Shown: positions 23,904-53,317 of the stretch, in pieces
Position numbering within the stretch: the first letter of the stretch is position 1
Layout: each line of letters opens with the position of its first letter
From: an uncultured Alphaproteobacteria bacterium
GTDB taxonomy: Bacteria > Pseudomonadota > Alphaproteobacteria > HIMB59 > GCA-002718135
Direction of reading: 5' to 3'
DNA length: 64,000 nucleotides
Assembly (NCBI GenBank): GCA_902561355.1
Contig: CACEPG010000004.1
Location: 13,133 to 77,132, forward strand
Translations under genes and position numbers: made by a program
The notes under the pieces: generated by a model
What the model was told of the DNA's origin: nothing
Database searches by the model: none
What the model saw: the letters and a program-made list of their open reading frames with translations, nothing else

Positions 23904-23909
23904 CCTCCT
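23904..23909 (-). promoter_or_regulatory. Shine-Dalgarno sequence (AGGAGG) for the sugar-binding protein gene
   Basis: The complement of cctcct lies 4 nt upstream of the ATG at 23899. Confidence 0.6.
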
Positions 23910-24108
23910 AAATCACAAATATACTGAAGATACATAACATAGCAGGTAAGTAATGCAATTTTTAATGTTATAAAAAAAGCCAGAAAACTATTAAATAATT
24001 CTGATTTATTATTATTTATTCCAATATATTGATAAATTAATTATTTATATTTTAATTATAAATAATATTGATTAAATAAAATTCTTCAAACAAATCAAAA
24101 GGGTTCTA

Positions 24109-27488: not shown

Positions 27489-27492
27489 AAAA

Positions 27493-28398: not shown

Positions 28399-28418
28399 AG
28401 TTTCTTATAAAGAAAAAA

Positions 28419-31435: not shown

Positions 31436-31438
31436 AAC

Positions 31439-32419: not shown

Positions 32420-32421
32420 AA

Positions 32422-33582
32422 TTATTTGGTTTTATGTGGATCTGCTGCATCTCGAAGACCATCTCCGACATATACAAATGTTAAAATTAAAACAACTAAG
32501 AAAAAAACAGGTATGAAATACCACTGATAGTTTAACAAAACATCTGCCTTAGTTGCGTTTTGTAAAAGTACACCCAATGAATTTACAGGCTCTCTTAAAC
32601 CTAGCCCAATAAAACTAAGAGCTGTTTCTGATAAAAGCATGTACGGAAAGCTTATTACGAGATCAACTATAATATAACTTGTAAAACTTGGTAAAAGATG
32701 TCGAACAATAATATGTGTTGATGATGCACCACACATTTGAGCAGCTAAAATATATTCTTGACTTCTCTCACTTAGTAAATGTGTTCGAACACGCCTTGCT
32801 AATGTTGGCCATGAAATCAAACCTAGCAAACAGGATATAAAGAAAAATCTTAGTTCAGAACTCCATTCAAGAGGTGCAAAAGCTGCTAAACACATAAATA
32901 AAGGTATGGGTGGTACTGTTCGTATAGCATCAGTAAACATTTGCAGCAGACTATCAATCCACCCGCCATAATATCCTGAGATACCTCCAATAATTAAAGA
33001 TAGAACAAAAGAAATAAAAACTCCCAATGTTCCGACTGCAAGTGAAATATAAATTGCACTTAAGGTTCTACTAAACAAATCCTTTCCTGCTTTATCTGTA
33101 CCAAAAAGATGAATACCTCCTTCTTCAACACCAAATAAATGTGTATCAAATGATAATCCTGGAATAGTAAAATCTAATCTCTTACCAGGGAGATTAATTT
33201 TATAATTAAAATATTTATATTCCCAACCTTTAACAAAAAAATAAACATAACGTCTTTTCTCAGTATCAATTTTATATACCCATCTAAAATTTGTATCCGC
33301 ACCTCTATATTTGCTTAAAGTATGAAGAAAAGGTCTTGGTGAAAAACCATTTTCATCCCAAAACATAGGAATCTGAGGAGCTCCATTTTCATAATCTTTG
33401 TCACGACCAGCAATTGTTGGATCATATGGAGAGAGAAAACCTGAAAATAAACTGCACACAATCATAAATAACAATATTGAGCCAGCAATCATCGCAGAAC
33501 GATTTCCAAAGAAACGAGTTCTTACCAATTGCATTTGGGTAGCAGTATAATATGCTTCTTTCTTTTTTGAACTAACCTCCAC
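32422..33582 (-). CDS. Opp/Dpp-type ABC transporter permease (OppC/DppC-like)
   Basis: 386 aa. Long loop after TM1, BPD_transp_1 core, and overlap with the upstream permease gene. Confidence 0.88.
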   Translation of the reverse strand: MEVSSKKKEAYYTATQMQLVRTRFFGNRSAMIAGSILLFMIVCSLFSGFLSPYDPTIAGRDKDYENGAPQIPMFWDENGFSPRPFLHTLSKYRGADTNFRWVYKIDTEKRRYVYFFVKGWEYKYFNYKINLPGKRLDFTIPGLSFDTHLFGVEEGGIHLFGTDKAGKDLFSRTLSAIYISLAVGTLGVFISFVLSLIIGGISGYYGGWIDSLLQMFTDAIRTVPPIPLFMCLAAFAPLEWSSELRFFFISCLLGLISWPTLARRVRTHLLSERSQEYILAAQMCGASSTHIIVRHLLPSFTSYIIVDLVISFPYMLLSETALSFIGLGLREPVNSLGVLLQNATKADVLLNYQWYFIPVFFLVVLILTFVYVGDGLRDAADPHKTK

Positions 33583-34585
33583 CCATAACTCCTTTCCTTA
33601 TTCTTGGATCCATTATTGCTAAAATTATATCAGTTATAAAATTTACAAATACTATTGTTGCAGTTAATAAAAAAATAATAGCGCCAGCTAATTGCTGATC
33701 ATTAGATCTAGCCAAAGCCTCTATCAATAATGCGCCAGCTTCAGTTAAAATTAAAATCAATGCAACAACTGGAAGAGCACTAAATATTCTATTTAAATCA
33801 AAACCAATGGAATTGATTACTGGTCCAAGTGAGTGTTTTGCTGGGTAACGCCATAATAAACTCATACCTGATATTCCTCTAGCTCTTGCTGCCATTACAT
33901 ACAGTTTATCATTTTCATCTAACATTAATGCTCTTACGGTTTGAAGTGCAAAAGCAGTGGCATTCCATCCAAGAACAAAAATTGGTAGCCAAGCTCTGCT
34001 AAGAAAATCTTTTGCCTTATCAGCCGACCATGGAGCATTTTCATATTCTTGGGAAAATAAACCGGTCATCGTATCTCCAAAATATACTGTCATAAAAAGC
34101 ATAATACAAAGTGCTACTAAAAAATTTGGTAAAGCTATACCAAGATAACTAACAAATTTAAGAGTCTGATCTAAAGAAGCATATTTTGTCGTGGCGGAAA
34201 TAATACCAACTGGTATCGCTATTAAATAAGAAAAAATTAATGCTACTAAACATATAGTAAGTGAGAGAACAAACCTTCCACTAAGAAGTTCATTAATACT
34301 CATCCGAAGAATACAACTATCTCCAAAATCTTGTCTAACAACAATATCTGAAACCCATTTTCCATATCTATAAAAAAAAGGCTTATCTAAACCTAGTCGA
34401 ACTTTTTCAGCTTCAATATCTTCAAATGTTATCTGGGAACCTTGTGTATTTTTAAATGCTAAATATCTTTCTGCACATGTACCAGGAACTAATTCCATTA
34501 ATGAAAAAACTATAAAACAAACTATGAGCAATGTAACAATAGCTAAAAAAGCTCTGGTCAATGTGAATTGAATAAAATTAATCAT
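33572..34585 (-). CDS. Opp/Dpp-type ABC transporter permease (OppB/DppB-like)
   Basis: 337 aa. The N-terminus FTLTRAFLAIVTLLIV...FSLMELVPG is typical of DppB/OppB, and the C-terminus reads DILAIMDPRIR. Confidence 0.9.
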   Translation of the reverse strand: MINFIQFTLTRAFLAIVTLLIVCFIVFSLMELVPGTCAERYLAFKNTQGSQITFEDIEAEKVRLGLDKPFFYRYGKWVSDIVVRQDFGDSCILRMSINELLSGRFVLSLTICLVALIFSYLIAIPVGIISATTKYASLDQTLKFVSYLGIALPNFLVALCIMLFMTVYFGDTMTGLFSQEYENAPWSADKAKDFLSRAWLPIFVLGWNATAFALQTVRALMLDENDKLYVMAARARGISGMSLLWRYPAKHSLGPVINSIGFDLNRIFSALPVVALILILTEAGALLIEALARSNDQQLAGAIIFLLTATIVFVNFITDIILAIMDPRIRKGVMGGG

Positions 34586-34630
34586 AGTTCATTTCTCATA
34601 ATTGATACTCAAGAATAATTAAAAAAAGAA

Positions 34631-34655
34631 AAGCGGCAATACAAAATTGCCGCTT
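34631..34655 (-). terminator. Intrinsic terminator/attenuator hairpin between the binding-protein gene and the permease genes
   Basis: aagcggcaat-acaaa-attgccgctt. On the minus-strand RNA it is followed by uuucuuuuuuu. Confidence 0.75.
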
Positions 34656-34678
34656 TTAAACATATTTATTAACTTATC

Positions 34679-36724
34679 TTATTCGTCTAACCACCACTGA
34701 GTAGCTAAATACGGATAAGTTCTGTAATACTCATAAGAAGTTGTTTTGAATTGTGTAAAGTTTTTCAAAGCATTTCTATGATATGTTGGGAAAGGTGCTT
34801 TTACAGTACCAATTAACAGAGTTTGCTCTGTTAACATAGTTGTAATTTTTTGACCCCACTCATTTGACTCAGCAGTACCTAATTCATATGATTGGAATTT
34901 ATCAATTCCATCACTTAAATCATATACCCACTTAGGAGGTTCTACACCATCAGATCCACCACTATCAATATAAGCTCCCCATAACATTCCTTGTGTATGG
35001 TTAAAGTAATTACCAAAAGGCGCTTTAAATGTTTCAGGATTACCTGCTATAATCGCTAATGGTTGTCCTTTGTCCCATGCATGAACATCAAGAGCATTAG
35101 ATGATTGAGATCCACGATATTCATCTGGAGTTACCTCTTTAAAAGAAGTTTTAACCCCTACATCGTTCCACATACGAGCTACTAATTCAACTTCAACACC
35201 ACCTATACCTTGAGTAGCATAGTCAATGTTCATTGCAAAAGGTGCTCCGTTTGGAAGTTCTCTAAATCCATCTCCATCAACATCTTTTAACCCAACTTCA
35301 TCTAGAAGTGCATTAGCAGTATCTGGATCGTATTGAGTCATATGCATTTTGATTTCATCAGGAACAAAGTCAGGTGCAGGTGAAATACCTACAAACTGCT
35401 CTACCACACCCAAACCGTAGTAAGCTACATCATTGATCTCATTTCTATCAAGTGCAATTGACATTGCTTGACGGAAACGAATGTCACCATAAACTTTACG
35501 TTTTTCCAAATCTGGATGAGTAACGTTAAAGCTAAATAGTGCTGCTCCACAACCTGGATTAATTTGAAGGTTATATCCACCAGCTTCTGCTCCATCTAGT
35601 AATTGAGGTGCAGATTCAAGTTGTACTGATTGTGATTTATAATCAACTTCACCATTAACAAGTTTTAGAAGTCTAATCTCATTTTCATTGATATATCTTT
35701 CATTTTGATAATCAATATATGGTAATTGATTTCCAGCAGTATCAACTTGGTGGAAATATGGATTAGCTGCATACACTCTTCCTTCAGTCGTATCTTCAAT
35801 AGTCATATACGCTTCTAAAGAAGGGTAAGCTGCATATTCTAAACCACCAACTAAATCAGGGTTTCTCAACATAGGAGTAGGAGTATCAGTCCAACCAGAG
35901 TTACCATAATAAGCTGCTAAAGCATCCCATCCATTTTCAAAACCAAGTGCTTGTGCATTAGCATCAGCATTTGAATCTATTTCTGGATGAAACTGTTCTA
36001 AGAAGTGTGCAGGTATAAATGCTTGGTTATAAGACCATGCAAGTGTTGCTAAAAGTCCTGGGAACGGAGATGGTAAGTTAAATCTTACAGTTGTATCATT
36101 AACTACATCTACGGTCATAGGCTCACCACCAACTAGAAGATAAGGATATGGTTTTTCTCTGATGTTTGTATTCATCATCATATCTTCATACCAAAACTCA
36201 ACATCTCTTGCTGTAAACGGCTCACCATTTGACCACTTATGACCTTTTCTCAGAGTAAAAGTCAATTCAGTGAAATCACTATTCCATGAGTAATCTTTTG
36301 CTACGTTTGGAACAATAGTTGATAAGTCATCAGCAAAACGAACTAAGTTTACATGACGAGTTGATAGCATATCAGAAGTACCTGCTTCTGTTGCATTTGA
36401 TAAAAAGTTAATTGTGCCCCCATATGATCCAATTGAATCATAAGGAACAATAACTAGCGGTTCATCAGGTAAACGATCAGCTACTCCTGCTAACCCTTTG
36501 TTACCTTGAATTGTTGCATTAATACTCGCAATATTCGGATTTTCAGAAAAGCTCATAGTACATCCGGCTGCACTTTCAAATTCTGATAATTCATATTGCT
36601 GAGGATATTTTCCACCTGTAAGTCCATCGTTCATAGTTGAACCTGAACATGCTGCATAAGAGTTTACACTCCACAACACAGTAGATGATGAAAATACCAA
36701 TGCTAAAAATAATTTTTTAAACAT
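34679..36724 (-). CDS. ABC transporter periplasmic substrate-binding protein, family 5, large (681 aa); ligand unknown
   Basis: Signal peptide MFKKLFLALVFSSSTVLWSVNSYA, SBP_bac_5-like core (HKWSNGEPFTARDVEFWYED), and a GAGGAG Shine-Dalgarno sequence 8 nt upstream. Confidence 0.85.
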   Translation of the reverse strand: MFKKLFLALVFSSSTVLWSVNSYAACSGSTMNDGLTGGKYPQQYELSEFESAAGCTMSFSENPNIASINATIQGNKGLAGVADRLPDEPLVIVPYDSIGSYGGTINFLSNATEAGTSDMLSTRHVNLVRFADDLSTIVPNVAKDYSWNSDFTELTFTLRKGHKWSNGEPFTARDVEFWYEDMMMNTNIREKPYPYLLVGGEPMTVDVVNDTTVRFNLPSPFPGLLATLAWSYNQAFIPAHFLEQFHPEIDSNADANAQALGFENGWDALAAYYGNSGWTDTPTPMLRNPDLVGGLEYAAYPSLEAYMTIEDTTEGRVYAANPYFHQVDTAGNQLPYIDYQNERYINENEIRLLKLVNGEVDYKSQSVQLESAPQLLDGAEAGGYNLQINPGCGAALFSFNVTHPDLEKRKVYGDIRFRQAMSIALDRNEINDVAYYGLGVVEQFVGISPAPDFVPDEIKMHMTQYDPDTANALLDEVGLKDVDGDGFRELPNGAPFAMNIDYATQGIGGVEVELVARMWNDVGVKTSFKEVTPDEYRGSQSSNALDVHAWDKGQPLAIIAGNPETFKAPFGNYFNHTQGMLWGAYIDSGGSDGVEPPKWVYDLSDGIDKFQSYELGTAESNEWGQKITTMLTEQTLLIGTVKAPFPTYHRNALKNFTQFKTTSYEYYRTYPYLATQWWLDE

Positions 36725-36842: not shown

Positions 36843-37751
36843 TTAGAGCCAAACTGGGTTTGTCCAGGCAAAATTCCCAGAATCATCAGCAATACTAACC
36901 CTAAACCACTCCGAAGGATAGTCTGTGAGATCAAATTCAGCGTTTGTAATATTTTTTCCATTCTGACTCATAGATTTGGCTCCTTGGCCAACTAAACACA
37001 CTTGGTTTGAAGGTGAACATTGGATATTTACTTTACTATTATTCATTTCAAACTCAAAAATTTCAATTCCAGTAGTTGAATAATATTGCCCATTTTTTAA
37101 AGCGTTTAAAATAGATATTTCGGATAAATTATCTGCTGCAACCATCACCCATCCACCTCCAAAATCTTGCATTCTAAAATGTGAGTCATCAGTAGCAGTT
37201 AAAAATATTTTATTATTTTCTTGTAATAAATAATCTGCTGTCGCAGTACCAAAACCACGTTGAGCTTCTAAATGGCAAGAATGATTATAAATTTCAACTC
37301 CATGAGCATGACTTACAGAAAGACATTCATCAAACGTTAGAGTGTACCATTCTGGATGAGCAATTGTAACAAACGCACCTGCTTCAATTGCTCTTTGAAC
37401 TAGATGAGGTGCTGTTTCTTTTTCATCAGCACATTTAAAATCTAATGGCAAACCATTTGCAACAATATGCCAAAGACCATCCCTAATATATTTTTTACCC
37501 TTACAATGAAGTTCTGCTGAGGGGATAGTGATAAAATCTTTTTGATTAAGATTTTTTGTTTCTAATACTGTTTCAGCTGCGAATTTACTCCCTTGCCATA
37601 AGTGATCTGAAAGACATGTAAAATCATAACCTATTTCTTTATACTTATTAATTACTTCTTGTGGATTTAAAGCTCCGTCTGAATGATTTGAATGTCCATG
37701 TAAATTACCTCTAAAGTATTGATGTGTATTTTTTGAAGGTAATAAATGCAT
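36843..37751 (-). CDS. PHP-domain metal-dependent phosphoesterase (CehA/McbA-like)
   Basis: 302 aa with the motifs GNLHGHSNHSDG, LSDH, IAHPEW and TDDSH (PHP His/Asp clusters). Confidence 0.75.
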   Translation of the reverse strand: MHLLPSKNTHQYFRGNLHGHSNHSDGALNPQEVINKYKEIGYDFTCLSDHLWQGSKFAAETVLETKNLNQKDFITIPSAELHCKGKKYIRDGLWHIVANGLPLDFKCADEKETAPHLVQRAIEAGAFVTIAHPEWYTLTFDECLSVSHAHGVEIYNHSCHLEAQRGFGTATADYLLQENNKIFLTATDDSHFRMQDFGGGWVMVAADNLSEISILNALKNGQYYSTTGIEIFEFEMNNSKVNIQCSPSNQVCLVGQGAKSMSQNGKNITNAEFDLTDYPSEWFRVSIADDSGNFAWTNPVWL

Positions 37752-37813: not shown

Positions 37814-38866
37814 ATGTTAACAACCGTTATCGGGGCTTACCCTAAACCAAATTATTTAAAAATTACTGATTGGTTTAATGCTTCAGGAGGAACTGACACT
37901 CAATTTCCTACTAAATTTTATAATGATGAAATAAAAGAAATGGGAAGTGAAGCTGAAAAATTGTTTCTTCGTGCTACAAAAGAAATAATTCATGATCAGC
38001 AAGAGTGTGGTGTTGATATAATAACAGATGGTGAAGTTCGTAGAGAAAATTATATTCATTATCACTGTAGACATTTAGCAGGTATAGATTTTGATAATCT
38101 TACTGAAAAATTAGCAAGAACAGGAAATTATAAATGTTGGTTGCCAACAATAACAAGTAAAATATCAGCAAAAGATCCTTTTTTAGTAGATGAATGGACG
38201 CATAATCAAAGTCTATCTGATAAACCAATTAAAGTAACTATTCCTGGCCCTATGACAATTACAGATACTATTGCTAACACATATTACAAATCAGATGAAG
38301 AAATGGGTTATGATTTAGCAATTGCTATTAATACAGAAATTAAAAGATTAGTTGATAAAGGATGCAAATTTATCCAAGTTGATGAACCGTTGTTTGCAAG
38401 AAAACCAGAAAATGCCTTAGCCTTTGGAATAAAGAATTTAGAAAAATGTTTTGAAGGAGTTAATCAAAATGATGTAGAAAAAATAACTCATATTTGCTGT
38501 GGTTATCCAGATAAACTTGATGCAATAGATTATCCTAAAGCACCTTTAAATTCTTACAAAAAAATTGCTAAGGCTCTAGATGCATCAACAATTGATAGTG
38601 TATCTATTGAAGATGCTCATCGTAATAATGATTTAACATTGCTTAAAGACTTTGAACATACAAAAATAATTTTTGGAATCATTAAAATTGCTAGTTCTAA
38701 AATTGAAACTGTTGAAGAGGTTGAGGGTAGAATAAAAAATTCTTTAAAATTTATTTCTCAAGAACAATTAATAGTTGCTCCTGATTGTGGTCTTGGACAT
38801 TTAACTAGAGAGCTTGCAATGAAAAAATTAAAAATTATGACTTTAGCTGCAAAAAAATTTAATTAA
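37814..38866 (+). CDS. Short cobalamin-independent methionine synthase-like protein (MetE catalytic C-terminal barrel only)
   Basis: 350 aa. Reads IGAYPKP..., FIQVDEP, and the Zn-ligand contexts HICCGYPD and APDCGLG. Confidence 0.8.
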   Translation: MLTTVIGAYPKPNYLKITDWFNASGGTDTQFPTKFYNDEIKEMGSEAEKLFLRATKEIIHDQQECGVDIITDGEVRRENYIHYHCRHLAGIDFDNLTEKLARTGNYKCWLPTITSKISAKDPFLVDEWTHNQSLSDKPIKVTIPGPMTITDTIANTYYKSDEEMGYDLAIAINTEIKRLVDKGCKFIQVDEPLFARKPENALAFGIKNLEKCFEGVNQNDVEKITHICCGYPDKLDAIDYPKAPLNSYKKIAKALDASTIDSVSIEDAHRNNDLTLLKDFEHTKIIFGIIKIASSKIETVEEVEGRIKNSLKFISQEQLIVAPDCGLGHLTRELAMKKLKIMTLAAKKFN

Positions 38867-38867: not shown

Positions 38868-39728
38868 TTAAAGACCGTGTGATTGATTATATTGTGATAC
38901 TTTTGGAGATTCCCATTTCTCTAAAACATCTGAATTAGACTTTAATACTGAAACTTTTAATGGATAACATCTGGCTTTATCAGATGAATGCTCACTACTA
39001 CAGTCACCACCTGGACAAGCTGACAATACACCCATTAAATCAAGTTCAGCAAAAAATTCAATAAAGTCTCCTGGTCTTACAGGACTAGCCTTCATAAAAT
39101 ATTGATGAGTATCATAGGTAAAACCTGTACACATAAAAACATTTAAGACATCATGAACTAAACTCTCTGCTTCTTTTTTTTCAAGATCTTTTTCTTTTAC
39201 TAATGCTCTAGTTAAATTTGAATGACAACAAAAATGATATTGATCATTTGAAATTAAATTTTTAGTATACGGATCACATCTAGTTCCAATTACATCATGA
39301 ACAGATCCTCCATCTTGATCAAATCCATACCAATCTAGTGTGTCATATGTAATTGTTACAAGAGGTCTTAAATATGGAAATGAGCTCCACATTTGATCCT
39401 TTGTTGAGAGATGTGTTCCATGCAGTGCTCTTGTTTTACCTGAATAAAATTTTTCCTTATAATTATTGGAATTAAATAAATTAAGATCACCAACTTGCGG
39501 ACCTTCAATACTTTCTATTCTAAAAAAACTACCTGCTTTTACTTCAAAACATTTTGCATCTCTTGGTTTGACAATAATTTCATCAATTTTTTCCAAACTC
39601 TTTCTTGCTAGTTGATAATTTTCCCAATGATCAACTATTATTTTATCACTTGGATAACATATAACAGGTTTAGTTAGCTTTCTATTTTCTCCATCTTCAG
39701 GTTTCTGATGTTGTGAATATTTTTTCAT
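38868..39728 (-). CDS. DUF1989 (urea-carboxylase-associated / carboxyguanidine-deiminase-like) family protein
   Basis: 286 aa. Reads KCFEVKAGSFFRIESIEGPQVGDLNLF, HDVIGTRCDPY, CHSNLTRAL, NVFMCTGF and GDFIEFFAELDLMGVLSACPGGD. Confidence 0.7.
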   Translation of the reverse strand: MKKYSQHQKPEDGENRKLTKPVICYPSDKIIVDHWENYQLARKSLEKIDEIIVKPRDAKCFEVKAGSFFRIESIEGPQVGDLNLFNSNNYKEKFYSGKTRALHGTHLSTKDQMWSSFPYLRPLVTITYDTLDWYGFDQDGGSVHDVIGTRCDPYTKNLISNDQYHFCCHSNLTRALVKEKDLEKKEAESLVHDVLNVFMCTGFTYDTHQYFMKASPVRPGDFIEFFAELDLMGVLSACPGGDCSSEHSSDKARCYPLKVSVLKSNSDVLEKWESPKVSQYNQSHGL

Positions 39729-40705
39729 TATTTATAGGCAATAACACTAATTATCTCAAACATAACAGCTGCGGCTACCATAGATGTAATATTATTTTTT
39801 TGATCTTTGGTAGGCATTAAACATACCACGTCACCTCCAATTACATTTTTATTCTTAACTGATTGAATTAAAGCTTTTGCTTCATCGATTGTAAAACCAG
39901 TAAAACTTGGCTCTATGTTTGCTACAGCAGGAGCTACTGATGCATCAAGTGAATCTAAATCAAAGGTGATATATAAAGGATTGTCTCCAATTTTATCTAA
40001 TAATTCTTTGATAACATCTTCAATACCTCTTTTTTGAAACTCATCCATAGTAACAACATTATATCCAAGATCGTAACTTGGCTGCAACCAGTCCAAAGTA
40101 CGGGGATTACCACGCATACCAATTTGCATACTTGTTCTAGGATCTATAATGCCTTGTTCAACAAGATAAGCCCCCCAATGAGCGGCACTTTTTTTTGCTC
40201 CCATAAAATGATCAAGTTGACTAAAAGTATCTGTGTGAGCATCAATATGAAGGAATGAAATTTTTTTTCCTTGGGTCATCTCTAAATTATTAGACCCTAA
40301 ACCTTGTAAGATACCGCCGGTAATAGAATGATCTCCACCAATCGATACAACAGGTTTATTTTCTCTTGCGATTCTTTTATAAAAATTAGTTATATCCTCT
40401 ATACATTTTTCATTATTATTAGCTTGAGGAAGAGCAACATCACCAAGATCAAAAATCTTTTTCTTTTTCCACGGATTAATATTAAATTCTAAATGAACTC
40501 TTCTTAGTCCTGCTGAAATGTGGCGAACTGCCCTTGGTCCTAAATGCTGATCTCGTTCTGTTGTTCCATTACCCGTGCTATGTGGTACTCCAACCAAAGC
40601 AATATCACAATTTGATAAATCTTTATTATGCTCACAACGAAATAATGTTGGTACACCCCACCAATACATTGTTTCCATCATTAACTCATCATTTGAGTCA
40701 GTCAT
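39728..40705 (-). CDS. Arginase-family ureohydrolase (guanidino-compound hydrolase; second paralogue)
   Basis: 325 aa with the motifs GVPHSTGNGTTERDQHLGPRAVR, GGDHSIT, IDAHTD and TFDLDSLD. Confidence 0.85.
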   Translation of the reverse strand: MTDSNDELMMETMYWWGVPTLFRCEHNKDLSNCDIALVGVPHSTGNGTTERDQHLGPRAVRHISAGLRRVHLEFNINPWKKKKIFDLGDVALPQANNNEKCIEDITNFYKRIARENKPVVSIGGDHSITGGILQGLGSNNLEMTQGKKISFLHIDAHTDTFSQLDHFMGAKKSAAHWGAYLVEQGIIDPRTSMQIGMRGNPRTLDWLQPSYDLGYNVVTMDEFQKRGIEDVIKELLDKIGDNPLYITFDLDSLDASVAPAVANIEPSFTGFTIDEAKALIQSVKNKNVIGGDVVCLMPTKDQKNNITSMVAAAVMFEIISVIAYK

Positions 40706-40715
40706 ATAGATTTGA

Positions 40716-41831
40716 TTAATTAATTGCCTTGCTTGGGTTTACAAACTCTAAACCCAAATCATCAGCTACAGCTTTATAAGTAACATTACCTAGACAAACA
40801 TTTAAGCCTGCTAAAAAATTAGCATCACTTGCTAAAGCATTTTTATATCCTTCTTTTGCCAACTTTAAAACAAAAGGTAAAGTAGCAGCATTTAAAGCTA
40901 GTGTTGAAGTCATTGGAACACCGCCCGGCATATTAGCAACACAGTAATGTACAACATCGTCAATTATATAAGTTGGATTAGCATGTGTAGTTGGTTTACT
41001 TGTCTCAACACACCCTCCTTGATCAATTGCTACATCTACAACAACAGATCCTCTTTTCATTTCTTTAATCATTTCTTTAGAAACTAACTTTGGAGCATTT
41101 GCTCCGGGTATTAACACCCCTCCTATTAATAAATCACATTGAGTAACATATTCTTCAAGTTTTATTTCATCAGATAGAAGCGTCGTAATATTCTCTCCAA
41201 ATTGAGATTTTAACTCATTTAATCTTGCCTCCGATTTATCAACTATAAAAACATTTGCTTGCATTCCTGAAGCAATAATTGCTGCATTCTCTCCGACAAC
41301 TCCTCCACCTAAAATCAAAACTGTTGCAGGATTAACTCCTGGGGCTCCTCCTAGCAAAAGACCTCTTCCGCCTAAAGGCTTTTCTAAAGAACGGGCGCCA
41401 GCTTGTATTGACATTCTCCCAGCAACAGCACTCATTGGGGCTAATAATGGTAAACGGTTATTTTCATCTGTTACTGTCTCATAAGCAATACAAATAGATT
41501 TCGAATTGATTAAACCTTTTGTTAAATCAGGTGCTGCTGAAAGATGAAGATAAGTAAAAAGTATTTGATTTTCTCTTAGCATCGATACTTCTTCATTTAA
41601 TGGTTCTTTAACTTTAACTATCATTTCTGCATCATTAAATACATCGCCAGCACTTGGAGCTATTTTCGCTCCTGTTTTTTCGTAGTCAGAATTTTCAAAT
41701 CCTGCATTAAATCCTGCATTATCTTGGATAATTACTTCATGACCATAATTTACAAGTTCTTGAACACTTGCAGGTGTTAAGCCGACACGTGATTCTTGGG
41801 CTTTAATTTCTGTTGGAACTCCAACTTTCAT
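40716..41831 (-). CDS. ald: Alanine dehydrogenase
   Basis: 371 aa. Reads MKVGVPTEIKAQESRVGLTPASV..., the NAD motif ILGGGVVGENAA, and VDVAIDQGGC. Confidence 0.92.
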   Translation of the reverse strand: MKVGVPTEIKAQESRVGLTPASVQELVNYGHEVIIQDNAGFNAGFENSDYEKTGAKIAPSAGDVFNDAEMIVKVKEPLNEEVSMLRENQILFTYLHLSAAPDLTKGLINSKSICIAYETVTDENNRLPLLAPMSAVAGRMSIQAGARSLEKPLGGRGLLLGGAPGVNPATVLILGGGVVGENAAIIASGMQANVFIVDKSEARLNELKSQFGENITTLLSDEIKLEEYVTQCDLLIGGVLIPGANAPKLVSKEMIKEMKRGSVVVDVAIDQGGCVETSKPTTHANPTYIIDDVVHYCVANMPGGVPMTSTLALNAATLPFVLKLAKEGYKNALASDANFLAGLNVCLGNVTYKAVADDLGLEFVNPSKAIN

Positions 41832-43171
41832 TACCTATCTTTCATATAATTAGAAATACCGGTTCTTAATTTCTCGATAATTTCATCAATATGATTTTTT
41901 TCACAAACAAATGGTGGGGCAACAATTAAACAATCACCAGTTGCTTTTAAACTTAAACCAGCTTCAAATAGTTTTTTGAAACACGCATAACCAGCTTTAC
42001 CTAGACGTTCATCCATTCTAATATCTATTCCACCCATCATTCCATAACCTCTTATGTCACCAATAATATCAAGATCTTTTAAGCTAAATAAACCATCTAA
42101 AAAATATGGTGACATATCTTTAGCACGATCAAATAGTTTTTCTTTTTCAAAAATATCCTGCATTGCAAGTCCAGCTGCCATTGAAACAGGAATAGCTGAA
42201 TAAGTGTAACCATGAAAAAATTCTACTGCTCCAGTTGGTGAAGCATTAACAATAGTGTCATATATTTCTTCACGCGAAGCTACTGCTCCAAGTGGTACTA
42301 CGCCGTTGGTAATCGCTTTTGCCATTGTTATCATGTCTGGTGTTACATCAAATGCTTGAGATGCAAATGGAGCTCCCATCCTACCCCAACCAGTAATTAC
42401 CTCATCAAAAATCAAAACTATTCCATGCTTATCACAAATTTCACGTAATCTTTTCAAATAACCTTTTGGAGGAACAAGTGTGCCTGTAGATCCTGCTACA
42501 GGTTCAACAATGCAAGCTGCAATATTTTCTGCGCCAATATTGCCTGCTATTCTCTCAAGATCATCTGCTAAATCTGCTCCTTCTTCAGGCTCTCCTTTAA
42601 CAAATAAATTTTGTGGTAAATGTGTATGACGTAAGTGGTGAACATTTGGCATTAAAATATTTGAGAATGTTTTTCTATTAGCTATCATTCCTCCAACAGA
42701 AATACCTCCAATATTCATTCCATGATATCCTCTTTCACGACCGACAATATGAGATCTGTGACCTTCTCCTTTTGCTTTAAAATATGCAATTACTGTTTTG
42801 ATTGCAGTTTCAACTGCTGATGAACCACATATTGTAAAGAAAATTCTATTTAAGTCCTCTGGAGTGTGTTTAGATATTCTTCTTGCTAGCTCAAATGAGC
42901 CACTATAACCTTGTTGAAATGGTTGAACATAATCTAGTTCTTCCAATTGTTTAGATACAGCTTCACGAATTTCTGGTCTGGAATGACCTGCAGGGCTACA
43001 AAAAAGACCGGAGCTTGCATCAATTAATTTATTTCCATGATGATCTGTATAATAAACACCTTCAGCTTTTACCATCAATCTAGGACTGTTTTTATAATCT
43101 TTATTTGACGTGAATGGCATCCAATGTTCTTCAAGAGAATTTGGCAAATTGTTTCTTTTTTCTATATCCAT
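41831..43171 (-). CDS. tpa: Class-III omega-aminotransferase, pyruvate-dependent (taurine:pyruvate or beta-alanine:pyruvate aminotransferase type)
   Basis: 446 aa. Reads GSSAVETAIK, IFDEVITGWGRMG, and the PLP-lysine context ITMAKAITNG. 1-nt overlap with ald, and pta lies divergently upstream. Confidence 0.6.
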   Translation of the reverse strand: MDIEKRNNLPNSLEEHWMPFTSNKDYKNSPRLMVKAEGVYYTDHHGNKLIDASSGLFCSPAGHSRPEIREAVSKQLEELDYVQPFQQGYSGSFELARRISKHTPEDLNRIFFTICGSSAVETAIKTVIAYFKAKGEGHRSHIVGRERGYHGMNIGGISVGGMIANRKTFSNILMPNVHHLRHTHLPQNLFVKGEPEEGADLADDLERIAGNIGAENIAACIVEPVAGSTGTLVPPKGYLKRLREICDKHGIVLIFDEVITGWGRMGAPFASQAFDVTPDMITMAKAITNGVVPLGAVASREEIYDTIVNASPTGAVEFFHGYTYSAIPVSMAAGLAMQDIFEKEKLFDRAKDMSPYFLDGLFSLKDLDIIGDIRGYGMMGGIDIRMDERLGKAGYACFKKLFEAGLSLKATGDCLIVAPPFVCEKNHIDEIIEKLRTGISNYMKDR

Positions 43172-43305
43172 AATTATTTTCCTAAAACTGCAAAATTTAT
43201 TAAGCCATATAGGATAGATTGTCTTAATCCAAGCAGAATTCTACTTATATAGTTTAATTTCATAGGAAAAAATAAGAGGCTAGTATAGAAGGTAAAATAT
43301 CTGCT

Positions 43306-44217
43306 ATGCTTAGTAATTTAAAAGCTATTGTGCCTGAAAATTTGATTTCTTTGGCTAAGAAAACTCCAAAAATCCCTGTCGGTATCATAAGTGCGAATCA
43401 CTACCCAGTTATTAAATCAGCTAAAGAAGCTTATGATTTAAATTTAATTAATCCAATTTTTATTGGTAATAAAAAAGAGATTATAGAGGAGGCCAATAAA
43501 CTATCTTGGAATATTAGTGCTCACGAAATTTTAGAAACAAATAGTAACCTTGATTCTGCAACTAAAGGTGCAGAGCTTGCAAGAGATAATAAAATAAAAG
43601 TAATGATTAAAGGCAACCTTCATACAGATATTTTAATGCGCACTTACTTAAAAAAAGAATTTGGTTTGATTGAAGGAAAACGACTGAGTCATATATGGCA
43701 CATGACAACAAATAATGATTCAAAACCACTTTTTATTACAGACGGTGCACTAAACGTTTCTCCACGTATTGATGTAAAAATGCATATTCTGAAAAATGTT
43801 ATTGAATTTGCTAACAAAATTGAAATTCAGAAACCTCGAGTAGCGATTTTATCTGGAACTGAAGATCCAATTGAAAGCATGCCAAGTTCAATTGAAGCTA
43901 AAGAAGTAATGGAGCGTGCTACAAAAGAAAATATAAATGCTTATGTACAAGGTCCTCTTGCTTTGGATAACGCTGTCTCGCCTGAAGCTGCAAAAATTAA
44001 AAAAATTACAAATGACGTGGCTGGAAAAGCTGATATATTATTAGTTCCAAACTTAGAAACTGGAAATGCTTTATCTAAAATTATGGTTTATTTTATGGGA
44101 GCTTGTGCAGCTGGATTCATCGTAGGTGGAAAAGTACCAGTTGTTGTAACTAGTCGAGCTGATAATTCAGCTTCAAGAATTGCATCTATTGCTGCTTCTA
44201 TAATTGCAGCACAATAG
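43306..44217 (+). CDS. pta: Phosphate acetyl/butyryl-transferase family protein (short Pta)
   Basis: 303 aa. Reads MIKGNLHTD, ITDGALN, and LLVPNLETGNALSK, typical of the PTA_PTB family. Confidence 0.8.
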   Translation: MLSNLKAIVPENLISLAKKTPKIPVGIISANHYPVIKSAKEAYDLNLINPIFIGNKKEIIEEANKLSWNISAHEILETNSNLDSATKGAELARDNKIKVMIKGNLHTDILMRTYLKKEFGLIEGKRLSHIWHMTTNNDSKPLFITDGALNVSPRIDVKMHILKNVIEFANKIEIQKPRVAILSGTEDPIESMPSSIEAKEVMERATKENINAYVQGPLALDNAVSPEAAKIKKITNDVAGKADILLVPNLETGNALSKIMVYFMGACAAGFIVGGKVPVVVTSRADNSASRIASIAASIIAAQ

Positions 44218-45119
44218 TGATAAAAAATAAATATCTCTATGTAACTTTTCTCGCTATCGGCGCGACTCTGTTTGGCTCCTTCATGGGCGCTGGTGTAAAA
44301 CTTTTATCAGATGGTTTAAACCCAATTATTATTTGTTTTTACAGGTGTTTAATGGGATTAATATTAATAACACCATTTGTTGCTATCAACAATTTTAAAG
44401 CGATAAAATCTAATAATACAAATCTTCAACTAATAAGAGCAGCAATAAATATCATCTCAATGATTTGTTGGTTCAGTGCAATTGGTATAATGCACTTTGA
44501 AAAAGCAACAGCTCTTGGTTTTACGACTCCTTTATTTACAACTATTTTAGCAGTACTAGTTTTAGGTGAAGTAATTCGGTTTCATAGAACAGCTGCATTA
44601 ATATTAGGTTTTATTGGAATAATTATCATTATTCGACCAGGTTATGTGCCCTTTGAGTTTGGGACAGTTTTAATGTTAATTGCTTCATTTAGCTTTTCAT
44701 TTGTTTTAATTCTTGTAAAAAAATTATCAGCTACTGATTCAAGTCTCACGATTATATTCTGGCATTTGCTATTTATGACACCTGTATTTTTTATACTGTC
44801 ATTATTTTTTTGGGAAAGTGTAACTTTTAACCAATTACTAATTTTTGTTTTTATGGGAGCAGCTGGATTGTTATCTCATTGGTGCTTAGCTCAAGCATTT
44901 AAATTATCTGACACTACCTTTGTAATGCCTTTACAATTTACAAAATTGATATGGGCATCATTAATTGGTTTATTCATATTTTCAGAACAACCTAATATTT
45001 GGACTTGGGTTGGCGGTGTAATAATCTTTATTTCGGTTGTTTATATAACTTATCGTGAAGCATTTAAGAAAAAAGGAACAGAAAAACCTATCCAGGTTGA
45101 TAGGGCAATTATAAATTAA
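44217..45119 (+). CDS. EamA/DMT-superfamily transporter
   Basis: 300 aa, about 10 TM helices. GTG start overlapping the pta stop by 1 nt. Confidence 0.75.
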   Translation: MIKNKYLYVTFLAIGATLFGSFMGAGVKLLSDGLNPIIICFYRCLMGLILITPFVAINNFKAIKSNNTNLQLIRAAINIISMICWFSAIGIMHFEKATALGFTTPLFTTILAVLVLGEVIRFHRTAALILGFIGIIIIIRPGYVPFEFGTVLMLIASFSFSFVLILVKKLSATDSSLTIIFWHLLFMTPVFFILSLFFWESVTFNQLLIFVFMGAAGLLSHWCLAQAFKLSDTTFVMPLQFTKLIWASLIGLFIFSEQPNIWTWVGGVIIFISVVYITYREAFKKKGTEKPIQVDRAIIN

Positions 45120-46114: not shown

Positions 46115-46510
46115 TTATTTTAGATCTCCCTTTGAGCGCATTTCTTTTCGTATATTAGTTGCAGAAATTTTATGAATTTTTTCACCTAAATCATGCTCAG
46201 TAAAAGTATAACCTACTCCTCTTCCATAAGAAATATCAATGATGTTCGGGACTTTTATAACAACGTATTCTTTTCCTTCTGAATATCCGTAAGGGGCTAA
46301 ACCTTCTATAATATTTTTTTTAACTTCTTCAAATTGAAAAGGATTGTCATTTTGTCCTGCTACACCAGCATCAACACCTCCTACATCTCGATACATAATA
46401 CATACCTGGCCTGTTTTTTGTAATGCCTTTTTAAAAAGAGCTGTATGACCATCATGCCATGGTTGCCAGCGTCCAAGCATTTCAACAGTTGGTTTTTTCC
46501 AATCAAACAT
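46115..46510 (-). CDS. Small HxGH-motif nucleotidyltransferase (cytidylyltransferase superfamily; NMNAT/NadM-like opening)
   Basis: 131 aa. GRWQPWHDGH corresponds to the (H/T)xGH motif, and ISATNIR to the ISSTxxR motif of this superfamily. Confidence 0.65.
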   Translation of the reverse strand: MFDWKKPTVEMLGRWQPWHDGHTALFKKALQKTGQVCIMYRDVGGVDAGVAGQNDNPFQFEEVKKNIIEGLAPYGYSEGKEYVVIKVPNIIDISYGRGVGYTFTEHDLGEKIHKISATNIRKEMRSKGDLK

Positions 46511-46997
46511 TTGTAATTTTCTCTGCTAGTTCTTTTATTTCTTTATCACTTAAAAAGGAAGTTATATGTATGTCTGGATTATTAGGATTTTCAAACATTT
46601 TATTTGTATCATCAAACTTTTTACTAGTAGATAATTGATCAGCATCAAAAGGCAGGTTATCTATATCTTTTAATTGATTTAATTTAGCTGAAACAACCCT
46701 ACCTTCTTTAACAGTATCCATCCAAATTAAACAATCTGCTGCAAATGATTCACGAACTTTGTTAGTAGGAGCAACAAAATCACATATAACATGTCGTCTT
46801 TGAGATTTTTCAAAATCAGCAAAAGCTTTCATTCTATTAGCTTGTCGAATTCTTCCTTCAACTTCAAAATCCCAGTCGTTTGAATATTTTCTAACAAAAT
46901 CAGCATTATACCACGCACAATTTTTTATATTCTTCTGGAGTCTTTCAGCTAACCAAGTTTTGCCTGATCCTGGAAGTCCACATACTAATATCTTCAT
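46503..46997 (-). CDS. P-loop kinase, adenylyl-sulfate (APS) kinase-like
   Basis: 164 aa, colinear with E. coli CysC as I recall it. GLPGSGKTW matches [35 protein letters not shown] matches [39 protein letters not shown] matches [29 protein letters not shown] matches FTGIDSVYEAPESAEIHL. The DGD motif is replaced by NAD. Confidence 0.55.
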   Translation of the reverse strand: [164 protein letters not shown]

Positions 46998-47114
46998 AGA
47001 ATTATTAATAAATATTAATTTTAAACAAGCAATAAATGTTTGTATTTAATAAAAAAAACATTAAGAAATTCTGGTAAAACAATACATTCAAGCTAAATAC
47101 TTTATAATATAAAT

Positions 47115-47909
47115 ATGTTTAATATAAACCCGTTTGCTGATCTTGCTCAATCTATACCCAGTATTCTTATGCAAACCTTTGTATTACTAATGTTTCTATT
47201 AATAGTTATAGGAACGATATTTGATATTATTCATAAAAAAAATGTAAAATATTTTTTTGAAAATGCTAAAAAAGCAAAAAAAAATGCCAAAATAGAATTA
47301 AGCACATCAAAAAAAACATCAGTTATTTTAAAAACTGTTACTAATGAAATTTTAACTACTTCAGAGCTAGGAAGAGGAAAAAGAAGAATTGCTCATTTGC
47401 TAGGAATGTACGGAACCATATTATTTTGGGTCACATCTATTATTATGATTTTTTTTTATTCAGAAAAAAATTCAATTACACCTTCTATATATCCAGTTCT
47501 TTGGCATCTTGGTGCAGTTATGACATGCTTGGGCGGATATTGGTTTTGGTTTTTTTTAAGAGTAGATGTATCTGCAGAAGCTTATCCTTGGTATAGAATT
47601 ATACAAGCTGATCTTTTTGTTTTATCTTTAGTCATAAGTGCAACTTTTGGAATAATCTGGTCTTTTCTTCAATCAGCTAACATCTTATTTTTTGATACGT
47701 TATTTTTTGTTTTATTTTGTCTATCCAATATAGTTTTATTTGGAGGAATATATTGGTCAAAATTTGCTCATATGTTTTACAAACCTGGAGCTGCTATTCA
47801 AAGAAATTTAGCAGAAGCAGATGGATCTAGAGATAATTTACCAGAACCTTCTAATAAACCTAAACAATTTGGTTTGGGAATAAAAAGAGAAGCTCCAAAG
47901 CATTATTAA
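47115..47909 (+). CDS. aprM: AprM-like membrane anchor for APS reductase
   Basis: 264 aa with five predicted TM helices and a hydrophilic C-terminal tail. It sits immediately upstream of aprBA, the arrangement described for AprM-type sulfur oxidisers. Confidence 0.6.
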   Translation: MFNINPFADLAQSIPSILMQTFVLLMFLLIVIGTIFDIIHKKNVKYFFENAKKAKKNAKIELSTSKKTSVILKTVTNEILTTSELGRGKRRIAHLLGMYGTILFWVTSIIMIFFYSEKNSITPSIYPVLWHLGAVMTCLGGYWFWFFLRVDVSAEAYPWYRIIQADLFVLSLVISATFGIIWSFLQSANILFFDTLFFVLFCLSNIVLFGGIYWSKFAHMFYKPGAAIQRNLAEADGSRDNLPEPSNKPKQFGLGIKREAPKHY

Positions 47910-47963
47910 TATGAATTTTAATAGAACTAAATTAATAAATATTGATGAAAGGAAATAATTAAA

Positions 47964-48434
47964 ATGTCTACTTTTGTATATATGACTAAATGTGATGGTT
48001 GCGGACATTGTGTAGACATATGCCCTTCAGACATAATGCATATAGATCCTGTTACTAGAAGAGCAGTTAATATTGAGCCGAACATGTGCTGGGAATGTTA
48101 TTCGTGTGTTAAAGCTTGTCCAAATGAAGCTATAGACGCTAGAGGGTATGCAGACTTTGCACCTATGGGGCACAGTGTGAGAGTTCTTCGTGAAGAAGAA
48201 AAAGGTACTATTTCTTGGAGAATAAAGTTTAGAAATGGCACAGAGAAAAATTTTGAATCTCCTATAACAACAAAACCTTGGGGTGAGCATATTCCAAAAT
48301 TAACAGAAGAAGCAGAGCCGGATCAAAAAGAAATCAATTCACAAATTTTATATTCTGAACCTGAAGGATTAAACACGAAAAAAGAATTACCCACTATAAG
48401 TAAAAGTTCTTTCAAAAAGGGAGTTTACTATTAA
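47964..48434 (+). CDS. aprB: Adenylylsulfate (APS) reductase beta subunit
   Basis: 156 aa. Two ferredoxin-type clusters (CDGCGHCVDICP and CWECYSCVKACP) followed by the AprB-type tail. Confidence 0.9.
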   Translation: MSTFVYMTKCDGCGHCVDICPSDIMHIDPVTRRAVNIEPNMCWECYSCVKACPNEAIDARGYADFAPMGHSVRVLREEEKGTISWRIKFRNGTEKNFESPITTKPWGEHIPKLTEEAEPDQKEINSQILYSEPEGLNTKKELPTISKSSFKKGVYY

Positions 48435-50293
48435 TGCCAAAAAATAAAACAGTTTACGAAAATTGTGATGTACTTGTTATTGGGGGAGGAATGGCAGGAA
48501 CTGGCGCAGCATTTGAAGCTAGACATTGGGGAAGGGACTTAAAAATAGTATGTGTTGAAAAAGCAAATATAGATCGGAGTGGTGCTGTTGCTCAAGGCCT
48601 ATATGCAATTAATTGTTATATGGGAATGCAATGGGATGAAAATCAACCTGAAGATCATGTTCGTTATGCACGTAATGATTTAATGGGACTTGTTCGTGAA
48701 GATTTAGGATACGATATGGCTCGTCATGTAGATTCTACTGTTCATATGTTTGATGAATGGGGTTTGCCAATGATGCGCAATGAAAAAACTGGAAGATATC
48801 AACGAGAAGGTAAATGGCAAATAATGATCCATGGAGAAAGTTACAAGCCTATCGTTGCCGAAGCAGCAAAAAAATCTGCTGATAAAATTTACAACAGAGT
48901 TATGATTACACACCTCTTAATGGATGACAGTAAAACAAACAGAGTTGGTGGGGCAGTTGGATTTAACATGCGAACTGGTGACTTTCATGTCTTTAAAGCA
49001 AAAACAGTTATTGTCGCTGCAGGCGGTGCATCTCATATATTTAAACCAAGGGCCGTTGGTGAAGGAATGGGCAGAACATGGTATGCGCCATGGAGCAATG
49101 GGTCGGCTTATGCCTTACCAATTGAAGTTGGTGCTAAAATGACACAAATGGAAAATCGTATAGTTTTATGTAGATTTAAAGATGGTTACGGACCTGTTGG
49201 AGCATATTTTTTACATCTTAAAACATATACACAAAATGCAAATGGTGAAAATTATGAAAAGAAATGGTACGACCAAACAAAAGAATTAGTAGGTGAGTAT
49301 ATAGATCATCAACCAACTCCAACTTGTTTACGAAATCATGCTTTTATTCAAGAAGTTATGGCTGGCAGAGGTCCAATACATATGGTCACTAAAGAAGCTT
49401 TCCAAGATCCGCATTTAGAAACAATTGGTTGGGAAAATTTTTTAGGAATGACAGTTGGTCAAGCAGTAGTTTGGGCTTCTCAAAATGTAGATCCAAAATA
49501 TCAAAATCCCGAACTAACTACTTCTGAACCCTACGTTATGGGATCACATGCTACTTGTTCAGGAGCTTGGGTAAGCGGACCAGAAGATCTATCTCCTCCA
49601 GAATATTTTTGGGGATATAATAGGATGACAACAGTGGAAGGGTTATTTGGAGCTGGTGATACGGTTGGTGGAAGTGCACATAAGTTTTCTTCAGGATCTT
49701 TCACAGAGGGTCGTTTAGCTGCTAAAGCTGCTATTAAATATATTCAAGATAAAAAAGCAGAGGACATAGAAGTTAATGATAGCCAATGTGAAAACTTTAG
49801 AGAAGTAATTTATAAACCTCTTGAAAATTATAAGGTTGGAAGAAATGAAATAACTGCTGGTACAGTTTCTCCAAGTTATATTCTTCCAATTCAAGGCTTA
49901 CAACGTCTTCAAAAAATTATGGACGAATATGTTGGAGGTATATCTTTTAATTATATGACAAATGAAAATACTCTTAAAAAAGGATTGGAATTGTTAGGTT
50001 GGTTACAAGAAGATTTAGAACATGTTGGAGCTGAAGATTATCATCAATTAATGCGTGCTTGGGAATTAAAACATCGGACCCTAACTTCTCAGTGTGTAAC
50101 TGAGCATACTTTGTTTAGAGAAGAAACACGTTGGCCTGGATATTATTACAGAGGCGATCATATGAAACTTGATGATGAAAATTGGCATTGTTTAACAGTA
50201 TCAAGACGTGATCCAGAAACAGGTAAATTTACTATGGAAAAAATGCCTGTGTATCACATAGTAGATGAAGAAAAGAAAAAAGAAGCTTCATAA
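48434..50293 (+). CDS. aprA: Adenylylsulfate (APS) reductase alpha subunit (flavoprotein)
   Basis: 619 aa. FAD motif VLVIGGGMAGTGAA and fumarate-reductase-family flavoprotein architecture. 1-nt overlap with aprB. Confidence 0.9.
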   Translation: MPKNKTVYENCDVLVIGGGMAGTGAAFEARHWGRDLKIVCVEKANIDRSGAVAQGLYAINCYMGMQWDENQPEDHVRYARNDLMGLVREDLGYDMARHVDSTVHMFDEWGLPMMRNEKTGRYQREGKWQIMIHGESYKPIVAEAAKKSADKIYNRVMITHLLMDDSKTNRVGGAVGFNMRTGDFHVFKAKTVIVAAGGASHIFKPRAVGEGMGRTWYAPWSNGSAYALPIEVGAKMTQMENRIVLCRFKDGYGPVGAYFLHLKTYTQNANGENYEKKWYDQTKELVGEYIDHQPTPTCLRNHAFIQEVMAGRGPIHMVTKEAFQDPHLETIGWENFLGMTVGQAVVWASQNVDPKYQNPELTTSEPYVMGSHATCSGAWVSGPEDLSPPEYFWGYNRMTTVEGLFGAGDTVGGSAHKFSSGSFTEGRLAAKAAIKYIQDKKAEDIEVNDSQCENFREVIYKPLENYKVGRNEITAGTVSPSYILPIQGLQRLQKIMDEYVGGISFNYMTNENTLKKGLELLGWLQEDLEHVGAEDYHQLMRAWELKHRTLTSQCVTEHTLFREETRWPGYYYRGDHMKLDDENWHCLTVSRRDPETGKFTMEKMPVYHIVDEEKKKEAS

Positions 50294-52681: not shown

Positions 52682-52695
52682 GTTGGGTAGTCAAT

Positions 52696-53316: not shown

Positions 53317-53317
53317 A

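Follow-up and report, generated by a model that had tools for sequence, protein, structure and literature searches.

The classic gene set for taurine dissimilation, known from Bilophila, Rhodococcus and Ruegeria, comprises Tpa, alanine dehydrogenase (Ald), sulfoacetaldehyde acetyltransferase (Xsc) and Pta. Taurine and hypotaurine are also among the substrates of the Pseudomonas omega-amino acid:pyruvate enzyme, and in class-III transaminases a flipping Arg binds the carboxylate of the substrate. DUF1989 proteins are known from the carboxyguanidine deiminase CgdAB (UAAP1/UAAP2) of the guanidine carboxylase pathway, two adjacent DUF1989 paralogues encoded next to a urea/guanidine carboxylase and an allophanate hydrolase. 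We know of no described taurine cluster with an attached ureohydrolase, unlike the operon analyzed here. This operon lies in a stretch of 64,000 nt from an uncultured HIMB59-type alphaproteobacterium (contig CACEPG010000004.1; the whole stretch is termed the window), and encodes an aminotransferase (AT), Ald, an arginase-family ureohydrolase (UH) and a DUF1989 protein. We propose, with a probability of about 0.5, a general scheme in which an amine is deaminated by AT and Ald, an appended amidinohydrolase feeds this deamination, and the sulfonate products pass to Xsc and Pta, with substrates and direction of flux that we infer.

The four genes form a run on the minus strand, with coordinates, families and junctions exactly as given in an earlier note on this DNA. 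The first is a class-III omega-amino acid:pyruvate aminotransferase of BauA/AptA type (AT, 41831–43171; PF00202, Aminotran_3, 301 bits), followed by Ald (40716–41831; TIGR00518, alaDH, 487 bits vs. a cutoff of 392), UH (39728–40705; PF00491, 216 bits over residues 34–318, full length) and a stand-alone DUF1989 protein as facultative last operon gene (38868–39728; PF09347, 146 bits). Read from the minus strand, the Ald start codon lies on the AT stop codon (TAATG, 1-nt overlap), a 10-nt gap separates Ald from UH, and UH and DUF1989 are joined by a second TAATG (1-nt overlap). Coordinates and Pfam families also agree with the noted pair of genes that diverges from AT across a 134-nt spacer (43172–43305, from the AT start codon to the pta start). 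On the plus strand, a pta-like phosphate acetyl/butyryl-transferase gene (43306–44217; PF01515) passed the NCBIfam PRK08190 subfamily model with its C-terminal PTA part (286.8 vs. 282), and was the sole PTA_PTB-family gene among the scanned open reading frames (ORFs) of the window. It is overlapped by 1 nt by the gene for an EamA/DMT permease (44217–45119; PF00892, two repeats), which has a GTG start. We infer co-transcription from spacing only, because promoter and terminator pattern scans gave counts at or below shuffle expectation and were uninformative.

The sulfonate context to which the earlier note pointed is real, and its genes in the window pass curated cutoffs or have clear Pfam matches. 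The xsc gene (56027–57796, minus strand; NF005713, 1026 vs. 620; TIGR03457, 952 vs. 676) is 13 kb away from pta. The adenylylsulfate (APS) reductase genes aprB-aprA are at 47964–50293 on the plus strand (PF12139, APS-reductase_C; FAD_binding_2 and Succ_DH_flav_C), and those of the sulfopyruvate decarboxylase ComE/ComD at 28419–29485 on the minus strand (TIGR03846, 224 vs. 221.5; TIGR03845, 156 vs. 148). Judged from these family matches, Xsc may supply acetyl phosphate for Pta, ComDE could provide a second source of sulfoacetaldehyde, and AprBA could oxidize sulfite.

In the proposed scheme, AT would deaminate an omega-amino acid with pyruvate, and Ald would regenerate pyruvate and release ammonium. 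For the amine, taurine or one of its close analogues (a sulfonate or sulfinate) is most likely; taurine would be converted to sulfoacetaldehyde, which Xsc would cleave, and Pta would then take the acetyl phosphate to acetyl-CoA. Sulfite would be handled by AprBA and/or the DMT permease, and EamA would move a sulfur anion or the substrate across the membrane. UH would most likely convert an omega-guanidino acid into urea and the omega-amino acid used by AT. Taurocyamine is the best single guess for its substrate, and a broad guanidino-acid specificity is possible. We hold taurocyamine specifically only as a tentative assignment. The most far-reaching version is equally doubtful. In it, UH would hydrolyze the amidino group of taurocyamine, a guanidino sulfonate, at a non-canonical active site and, together with the Lys-type AT (adapted to sulfonates), Ald, Xsc and Pta, make up a bacterial route that has not been described; DUF1989, otherwise a dispensable extra gene at the 3′ end, would encode a new enzyme for one of the by-products. 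If true, guanidino sulfonates of the invertebrate phosphagen type would be converted to acetyl-CoA, sulfite, ammonium and urea.

The best PDB matches of AT were 3a8u (P. putida omega-amino acid:pyruvate aminotransferase) and 4b98 (BauA), both with ∼50% identity. The implied reading of AT as a canonical Tpa was not supported: judged by the AptA model and the names of its relatives, AT appears to be of the BauA/AptA type. The flipping Arg (GFYVRFGGD in 3a8u and 4b98) is replaced by Lys in the window AT (GLSLKATGD), and Lys occupies this position in all 112 readable HIMB59 AT homologues. Arg is present in 3a8u, in 4b98 and in nine plasmid homologues (from Thalassospira, Ralstonia, Rhodobacteraceae M382, Rhizobium, Sinorhizobium, Methylobacterium, Mameliella and Sphingobium). 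The Arg forms with informative context (three plasmid loci) all adjoin mmsA, as AT-mmsA amid pyrimidine-degradation genes in Thalassospira, AT-mmsA in Ralstonia and AT-mmsA-ald-TRAP on the Rhodobacteraceae M382 plasmid. The bauA gene of P. aeruginosa also adjoins mmsA. No malonate/methylmalonate-semialdehyde dehydrogenase was detected in the operon or among the annotated neighbors, and neither mmsA nor urease was detected among the scanned window ORFs.

Among the plasmid homologues read, the sole other Lys form was the best plasmid match of AT, from Novosphingobium pLA3 (54.5% identity). Its neighbors encode a MocR-type regulator, an amino-acid permease, an aldehyde dehydrogenase and a TauE/SafE exporter. 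A C-terminal peptide search for further Lys-type ATs on plasmids recovered Novosphingobium only; matches in Paracoccus and Pseudosulfitobacter were in unrelated contexts. In this small sample (two independent Lys lineages in sulfonate settings vs. three plasmid Arg lineages beside mmsA), the association is suggestive of a Lys form that marks a sulfonate setting, and the Arg-to-Lys change leans toward a sulfonate substrate. The change may also serve as a marker to tell transaminases for sulfonate amines from those for beta-alanine within a single orthologous group. In SAR11, SAR11_0808 is placed between tauA (SAR11_0807) and ald (SAR11_0809) (PMC3870248, PMC11485210).

UH scored below every NCBIfam cutoff (agmatinase TIGR01230, 119 vs. 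174; NF002564, 168 vs. 302). The second arginase-family paralogue that had been reported at 15537–16475 is present, and it passes the same agmatinase equivalog, TIGR01230 (198 vs. 174). The best PDB match of UH was P. aeruginosa GpuA (3nip; 137 bits, ∼33% identity), with GbuA at 120 bits and E. coli SpeB at 110 bits. The six metal ligands (H126, D155, H157, D159, D249 and D251) were invariant in alignments A1–A3, and the catalytic His176 and Asp159, the equivalent of Asp153, were intact in the alignments of the UH subfamily. Arg68 of UH aligns with GbuA Arg72 and human GDAH Arg105. The latter two residues were proposed to contact the acid group of the substrate, as in taurocyamine, and taurocyamine is the best-hydrolyzed substrate of human GDAH (PMC9772407). 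Hydrolysis of taurocyamine by the arginase fold therefore has a precedent.

The active site of UH departs from the family at the guanidinium-binding Glu. The family motif DVVEVSP reads DVVCLMP in UH, and its Cys295 does not vary within the subfamily. In place of the GTGTP loop stands AVANIEPSF, which has an insertion of two residues, and KKSAAHW is a subfamily-specific motif. A wider clade, 34–48% identical and recovered from a search of 1.8 billion cluster representatives (alignment A3), also carries the Cys, and Cys24 largely co-varies with Cys295 across this clade. This co-variation points to a joint role of the two Cys, structural or catalytic, at the usual site of the guanidinium-binding Glu (Glu277 in rat arginase). 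The Cys clade branches near the guanidino-acid hydrolases, since one of its members scores 206 bits vs. GpuA. The genomic context of the distant Cys-clade hydrolases P0362, P0368 and P0381 was uninformative. On its sequence, UH is a member of the superfamily that is closest to the guanidino-acid hydrolases and fails one defining active-site feature.

A species-representative genome collection contained 559 relatives of UH, of which the best 80 were all from HIMB59 or Pelagibacteraceae. The closest were from single-cell genomes and metagenome-assembled genomes of HIMB59 or ‘uncultured Alphaproteobacteria’ (90–94%), followed by Pelagibacteraceae (67–71%), which places the window in the HIMB59/AEGEAN-169 clade. 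Members of the subfamily carry loose labels, agmatinase or guanidinopropionase. The exact UH sequence of the window was not on record when looked up in public assemblies. In this sample the UH subfamily is restricted to SAR11 and HIMB59, and the Cys-type UH is common to HIMB59 and most sampled SAR11 genomes.

The arrangement of the operon was compared by searching the window proteins against all fetched loci and by reading the called genes of further contigs. The same gene order was found in more than 15 independent HIMB59-type assemblies (73–95% amino-acid identity), so that the arrangement is not due to chance. Three layers were observed: an invariant EamA-pta<>AT-Ald core, UH as a common add-on and DUF1989 as a second, facultative add-on. 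The core was present in every HIMB59-type locus with AT (24 loci, ∼18 distinct), and pta diverged from AT-Ald at every locus compared. UH was missing only in L093/L094 (MarineAlpha5_Bin9 type), where a MetE-like gene directly follows Ald and the SpeB-type paralogue is the sole arginase-family gene in the vicinity. DUF1989 was present in 9 of the 18 readable UH-bearing relatives, one copy being truncated: it follows UH in the window, L001/L022, L005, L009–L012, L095 and L096, is truncated in L097, and is absent from L006–L008, L013–L017 and L020. With a core found everywhere and UH missing in one lineage (L093/L094), the earlier idea of a hydrolase attached to a deamination module stands.

The MetE-like gene (Meth_synt_2; 37814–38866, plus strand; PF01717) is the convergent flank of the operon in the window, and in nearly every HIMB59 locus it comes after Ald, after UH or after DUF1989. 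In the loci without DUF1989, the gap before it was empty or held an opposite-strand alanine racemase gene or a small membrane ORF. The operon 3′ end is therefore a variable spot. The alanine-racemase-like gene (355 aa) stands on the opposite strand between UH/DUF1989 and the MetE-like gene in L008, L009 and L014–L017; it was called by reading its AxxIKADAYGxG motif (pyridoxal-phosphate lysine), without a hidden Markov model. In L013 and L014, a membrane ORF of 174–182 aa follows UH.

A number of observations count against the deamination scheme with an appended guanidino-acid hydrolase, and against taurocyamine as its entry compound. First, AT passes the NCBIfam AptA equivalog (585 vs. a cutoff of 500, with the next model at 370), and its relatives are named beta-alanine--pyruvate transaminase (JGI, KO-based, K00822-type). 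An ald gene is also present in the AT-mmsA-ald beta-alanine operon of Rhodobacteraceae M382, the correlation of Lys with a sulfonate setting is made up of two lineages only, and tauABC, TauKLM and TauR were not detected among the scanned window ORFs. Second, the alignment with E. coli SpeB, with its residues counted, places Cys295 of UH where SpeB has Glu274. The SpeB E274A variant retained 1–2% of the activity and bound guanidinium poorly (PMC8125230). Standard guanidino chemistry of UH is not assured, because Cys replaces this Glu, and UH may perhaps be a non-standard guanidino hydrolase. Third, in SAR11 proper the orthologous hydrolase (67–71%) is monocistronic in ∼60 loci (L023–L087, at ∼10001–10969), where it diverges from its own, different EamA gene and converges with a betA-like gene; none of AT, Ald, pta and DUF1989 was found in its flanks (within 10 kb for AT, Ald and pta). 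Fourth, the variable 3′ spot has also taken up alr and the small membrane ORF, so that adjacency at this end is weaker evidence than usual. Finally, a literature search for bacterial taurocyamine hydrolysis found none.

In SAR11, the betA-like gene is choline-dehydrogenase-like (NF002550, 740 vs. 605), and a BKACE/thioesterase/SDR set typical of carnitine-type catabolism lies nearby. An SMR gene near the SAR11 hydrolase was considered as a guanidinium exporter and rejected, since it scores as Qac/EmrE-like and not as SugE/Gdx.

A conservative carboxylate route, of the kind formed by gpuA and bauA in Pseudomonas, is an alternative. UH would then be a 3-guanidinopropionase or 4-guanidinobutyrase, AT a beta-alanine:pyruvate transaminase and Ald the enzyme that recycles pyruvate, and the presence of pta and xsc would be coincidental. 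The JGI names of the relatives (guanidinopropionase and beta-alanine--pyruvate transaminase), the best PDB matches (GpuA and BauA/omega-APT), the AptA score of AT and the AT-mmsA-ald operon of the Rhodobacteraceae plasmid speak for this route. In contrast, neither mmsA nor another malonate-semialdehyde dehydrogenase gene is found in or beside the operon, unlike in all informative Arg-type loci; the invariant partner of AT-Ald is pta-EamA, the flipping Arg of AT is Lys, and UH is ∼33% identical to GpuA and lacks the equivalent of Glu274. When both sides are considered, we regard the carboxylate route as unlikely.

It is rather improbable that UH has no pathway in common with AT-Ald and that it came to lie, with or without DUF1989, in a stretch prone to recombination that separates Ald from the MetE-like gene. 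It would then serve an unrelated role, as its stand-alone SAR11 orthologues would, e.g., obtaining nitrogen from guanidino compounds that derive from arginine or are of the polyamine type. The spot does hold alr, a small membrane ORF, DUF1989 or nothing, depending on the genome, the hydrolase of the ∼60 SAR11 loci is unlinked to AT-Ald, and DUF1989 orthologues lie beside pxpBC, leuA-like, XDH-like or aldehyde dehydrogenase genes. UH, however, is always on the operon strand, 10–14 nt past Ald, and is kept across HIMB59 subclades with 81–94% identity; in addition, the content of the spot looks functionally coherent, because the inserted alr is itself alanine-related.

A third explanation, that the Cys-clade enzyme acts on an N-substituted or altered amidino group (methylated, asterubine-type, or an amidine) or uses another metal, is likewise improbable: the replacement by Cys295 of the Glu responsible for binding and orienting guanidinium, the AVANIEPSF loop with its 2-residue insertion, the co-variation of Cys24 and recently found family members with changed substrate and metal (a guanidine hydrolase and a metformin hydrolase, Ni-dependent; PMC11271267, PMC11399263) speak for it, but the six metal ligands, the catalytic His and Asp159 are intact, one Cys-clade member reaches the above score against GpuA, and accessory genes for Ni insertion did not turn up among the annotated neighbors.

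The DUF1989 protein was not confirmed as the carboxyguanidine deiminase suggested in the earlier note, since it scored 42 vs. a cutoff of 285 and 20 vs. 206 bits with the UAAP2/UAAP1 models (TIGR03424/TIGR03425). The deiminase role was also rejected because DUF1989 is a single gene, no window ORF is of carboxylase size, and the gene is absent from about half of the UH operons; the longest window ORF (788 aa) encodes a GH31 enzyme. Its closest PDB match was an uncharacterized R. pomeroyi protein (3di4; E = 3e-123, ∼65% identity), and it has one His and three Cys in common with the DUF1989 domain of the trimethylamine N-oxide demethylase (Tdm). Elsewhere, DUF1989 orthologues (65–71% identity) stand in unrelated contexts: beside an aldehyde dehydrogenase gene in Denitrobaculum, between leuA-like and SpoU genes in SAR11 (L090) and beside an XDH-like cluster (L091). 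A search of these contexts for a constant partner revealed no common one, and nothing was found in the literature on the function of this DUF1989 subfamily. From its sequence, the protein is a widespread, highly conserved stand-alone enzyme, and its position is weak evidence for a link to UH. In a marine single-cell genome (L088:4544-7870), the DUF1989 orthologue (71%) directly follows pxpB-pxpC (CT_C_D, CT_A_B), with LamB/YcsF divergent; this arrangement recalls the association of DUF1989 with carboxyltransferase-domain enzymes.

Within the 134-nt spacer, an alignment of 15 spacers revealed the blocks CTTCTATACTAG, TTTTCCTAYGAAATT and AGAATTCTNCTTGGA, which are conserved in the UH-bearing HIMB59 genomes. 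The spacer diverges in the lineage without UH, and the conserved blocks may represent a shared regulatory region. Neither the spacer nor the window matched any Rfam family, guanidine riboswitches included, whether at the gathering threshold or with E ≤ 1.

Other genes of the window, which has a G+C content of ∼29%, are listed here for orientation. An APS-kinase-like gene, a 264-aa ORF without family match (47115–47909) and AprB-AprA form a block (46503–50293) that adjoins EamA-pta<>AT-Ald in L005, L095 and L096 too. At 16687–29485, a run of genes resembles sulfoquinovose-type sulfoglycolysis ending at sulfoacetaldehyde; it encodes a GH31 glycosidase, a sugar ABC transporter, a GFO/IDH/MocA oxidoreductase, a 2-hydroxyacid dehydrogenase, a PfkB kinase and ComDE, together with an isomerase-like protein that has a sub-threshold SftI match (287 bits vs. 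a cutoff of 700). The HIMB59 literature found contained no mention of sulfoquinovose or taurine, and a literature search on HIMB59 sulfonate metabolism returned nothing on point. Beyond the MetE-like gene lie genes for a CehA/McbA-family PHP metallohydrolase (36843–37751) and for an Opp-type ABC transporter whose SBP_bac_5 protein has 681 aa (30443–36724); in close relatives (L095:13365-14894) the PHP gene is replaced by a sulfatase gene. A Rieske oxygenase with a sub-threshold GbcA match (121 bits vs. a cutoff of 670) and an M24/creatinase-N protein (51500–54580) are possible osmolyte or methylamine catabolic genes, and at the left end of the window (726–6497) there is a haem cluster with hemF, hemH, hemE, hemB and a 520-aa ORF containing hemC.

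The logic of the proposed pathway is not new, because Pseudomonas is known to use a hydrolase followed by a transaminase, and a human enzyme of this fold is known to hydrolyze taurocyamine. New are (i) a UH joined in an operon with Ald beside pta in a sulfonate island; (ii) a hydrolase subfamily that is restricted, in this sample, to SAR11 and HIMB59 and does not have the canonical Glu; and (iii) a Lys variant of the AptA-type aminotransferase. The HIMB59 operon provides a concrete substrate hypothesis, because it is the sole context found here that ties UH to a downstream pathway. In the ocean, SAR11 and HIMB59 rank with the most abundant heterotrophs, and the nitrogen and sulfur cycles are shaped by the way in which they use the dissolved organic forms of both elements. 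Should UH hydrolyze guanidino acids, these cells would add urea to seawater and remove guanidino compounds from it; two SAR11 strains examined are without urease (PMC8437039). The main value of the locus is a concrete handle on an uncharacterized enzyme of very abundant marine bacteria.

When compared with known systems, the DUF1989 protein has the same domain as CgdAB (PF09347), but it is encoded by one gene rather than by a heteromeric pair, has no carboxylase or allophanate hydrolase nearby and belongs to the subfamily of 3di4 (∼65%). The operon resembles the Tpa-Ald-Xsc-Pta set in its pyruvate-dependent aminotransferase and Ald, in the presence of xsc and pta on the same island, and in AprBA for sulfite. 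It differs in that AT is not Tpa-type by annotation, no tauABC or TauR is found among the scanned window ORFs, and xsc is 13 kb off. UH shares the arginase-family fold with human GDAH/AGMAT, and GDAH, which requires an acidic group on its substrate, hydrolyzes taurocyamine (PMC9772407). GDAH, however, is 60% identical to GbuA and keeps the canonical Glu by family consensus, whereas UH forms a separate clade. The closest annotated AT homologue, from Novosphingobium pentaromativorans pLA3, shares the Lys variant and a sulfonate-type context without mmsA. As known from annotation, its cluster consists of a MocR-type regulator divergent from the aminotransferase-permease genes, with aldehyde dehydrogenase and TauE/SafE; unlike the window, it lacks Ald, pta and a ureohydrolase.

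A likeness in logic is found with P. aeruginosa, where GpuA (3-guanidinopropionase, EC 3.5.3.17, 3nip) or GbuA (3nio) acts before BauA (4b98). The same two families occur in the same logical order: an amidinohydrolase that yields urea and an omega-amino acid, and then a pyruvate-dependent class-III transaminase. Unlike GpuA and BauA, UH (∼33% identical to GpuA) carries Cys for the guanidinium-binding Glu and AT carries Lys for the flipping Arg. Moreover, a single operon here encodes both enzymes and Ald, and its neighbor is pta, not mmsA.

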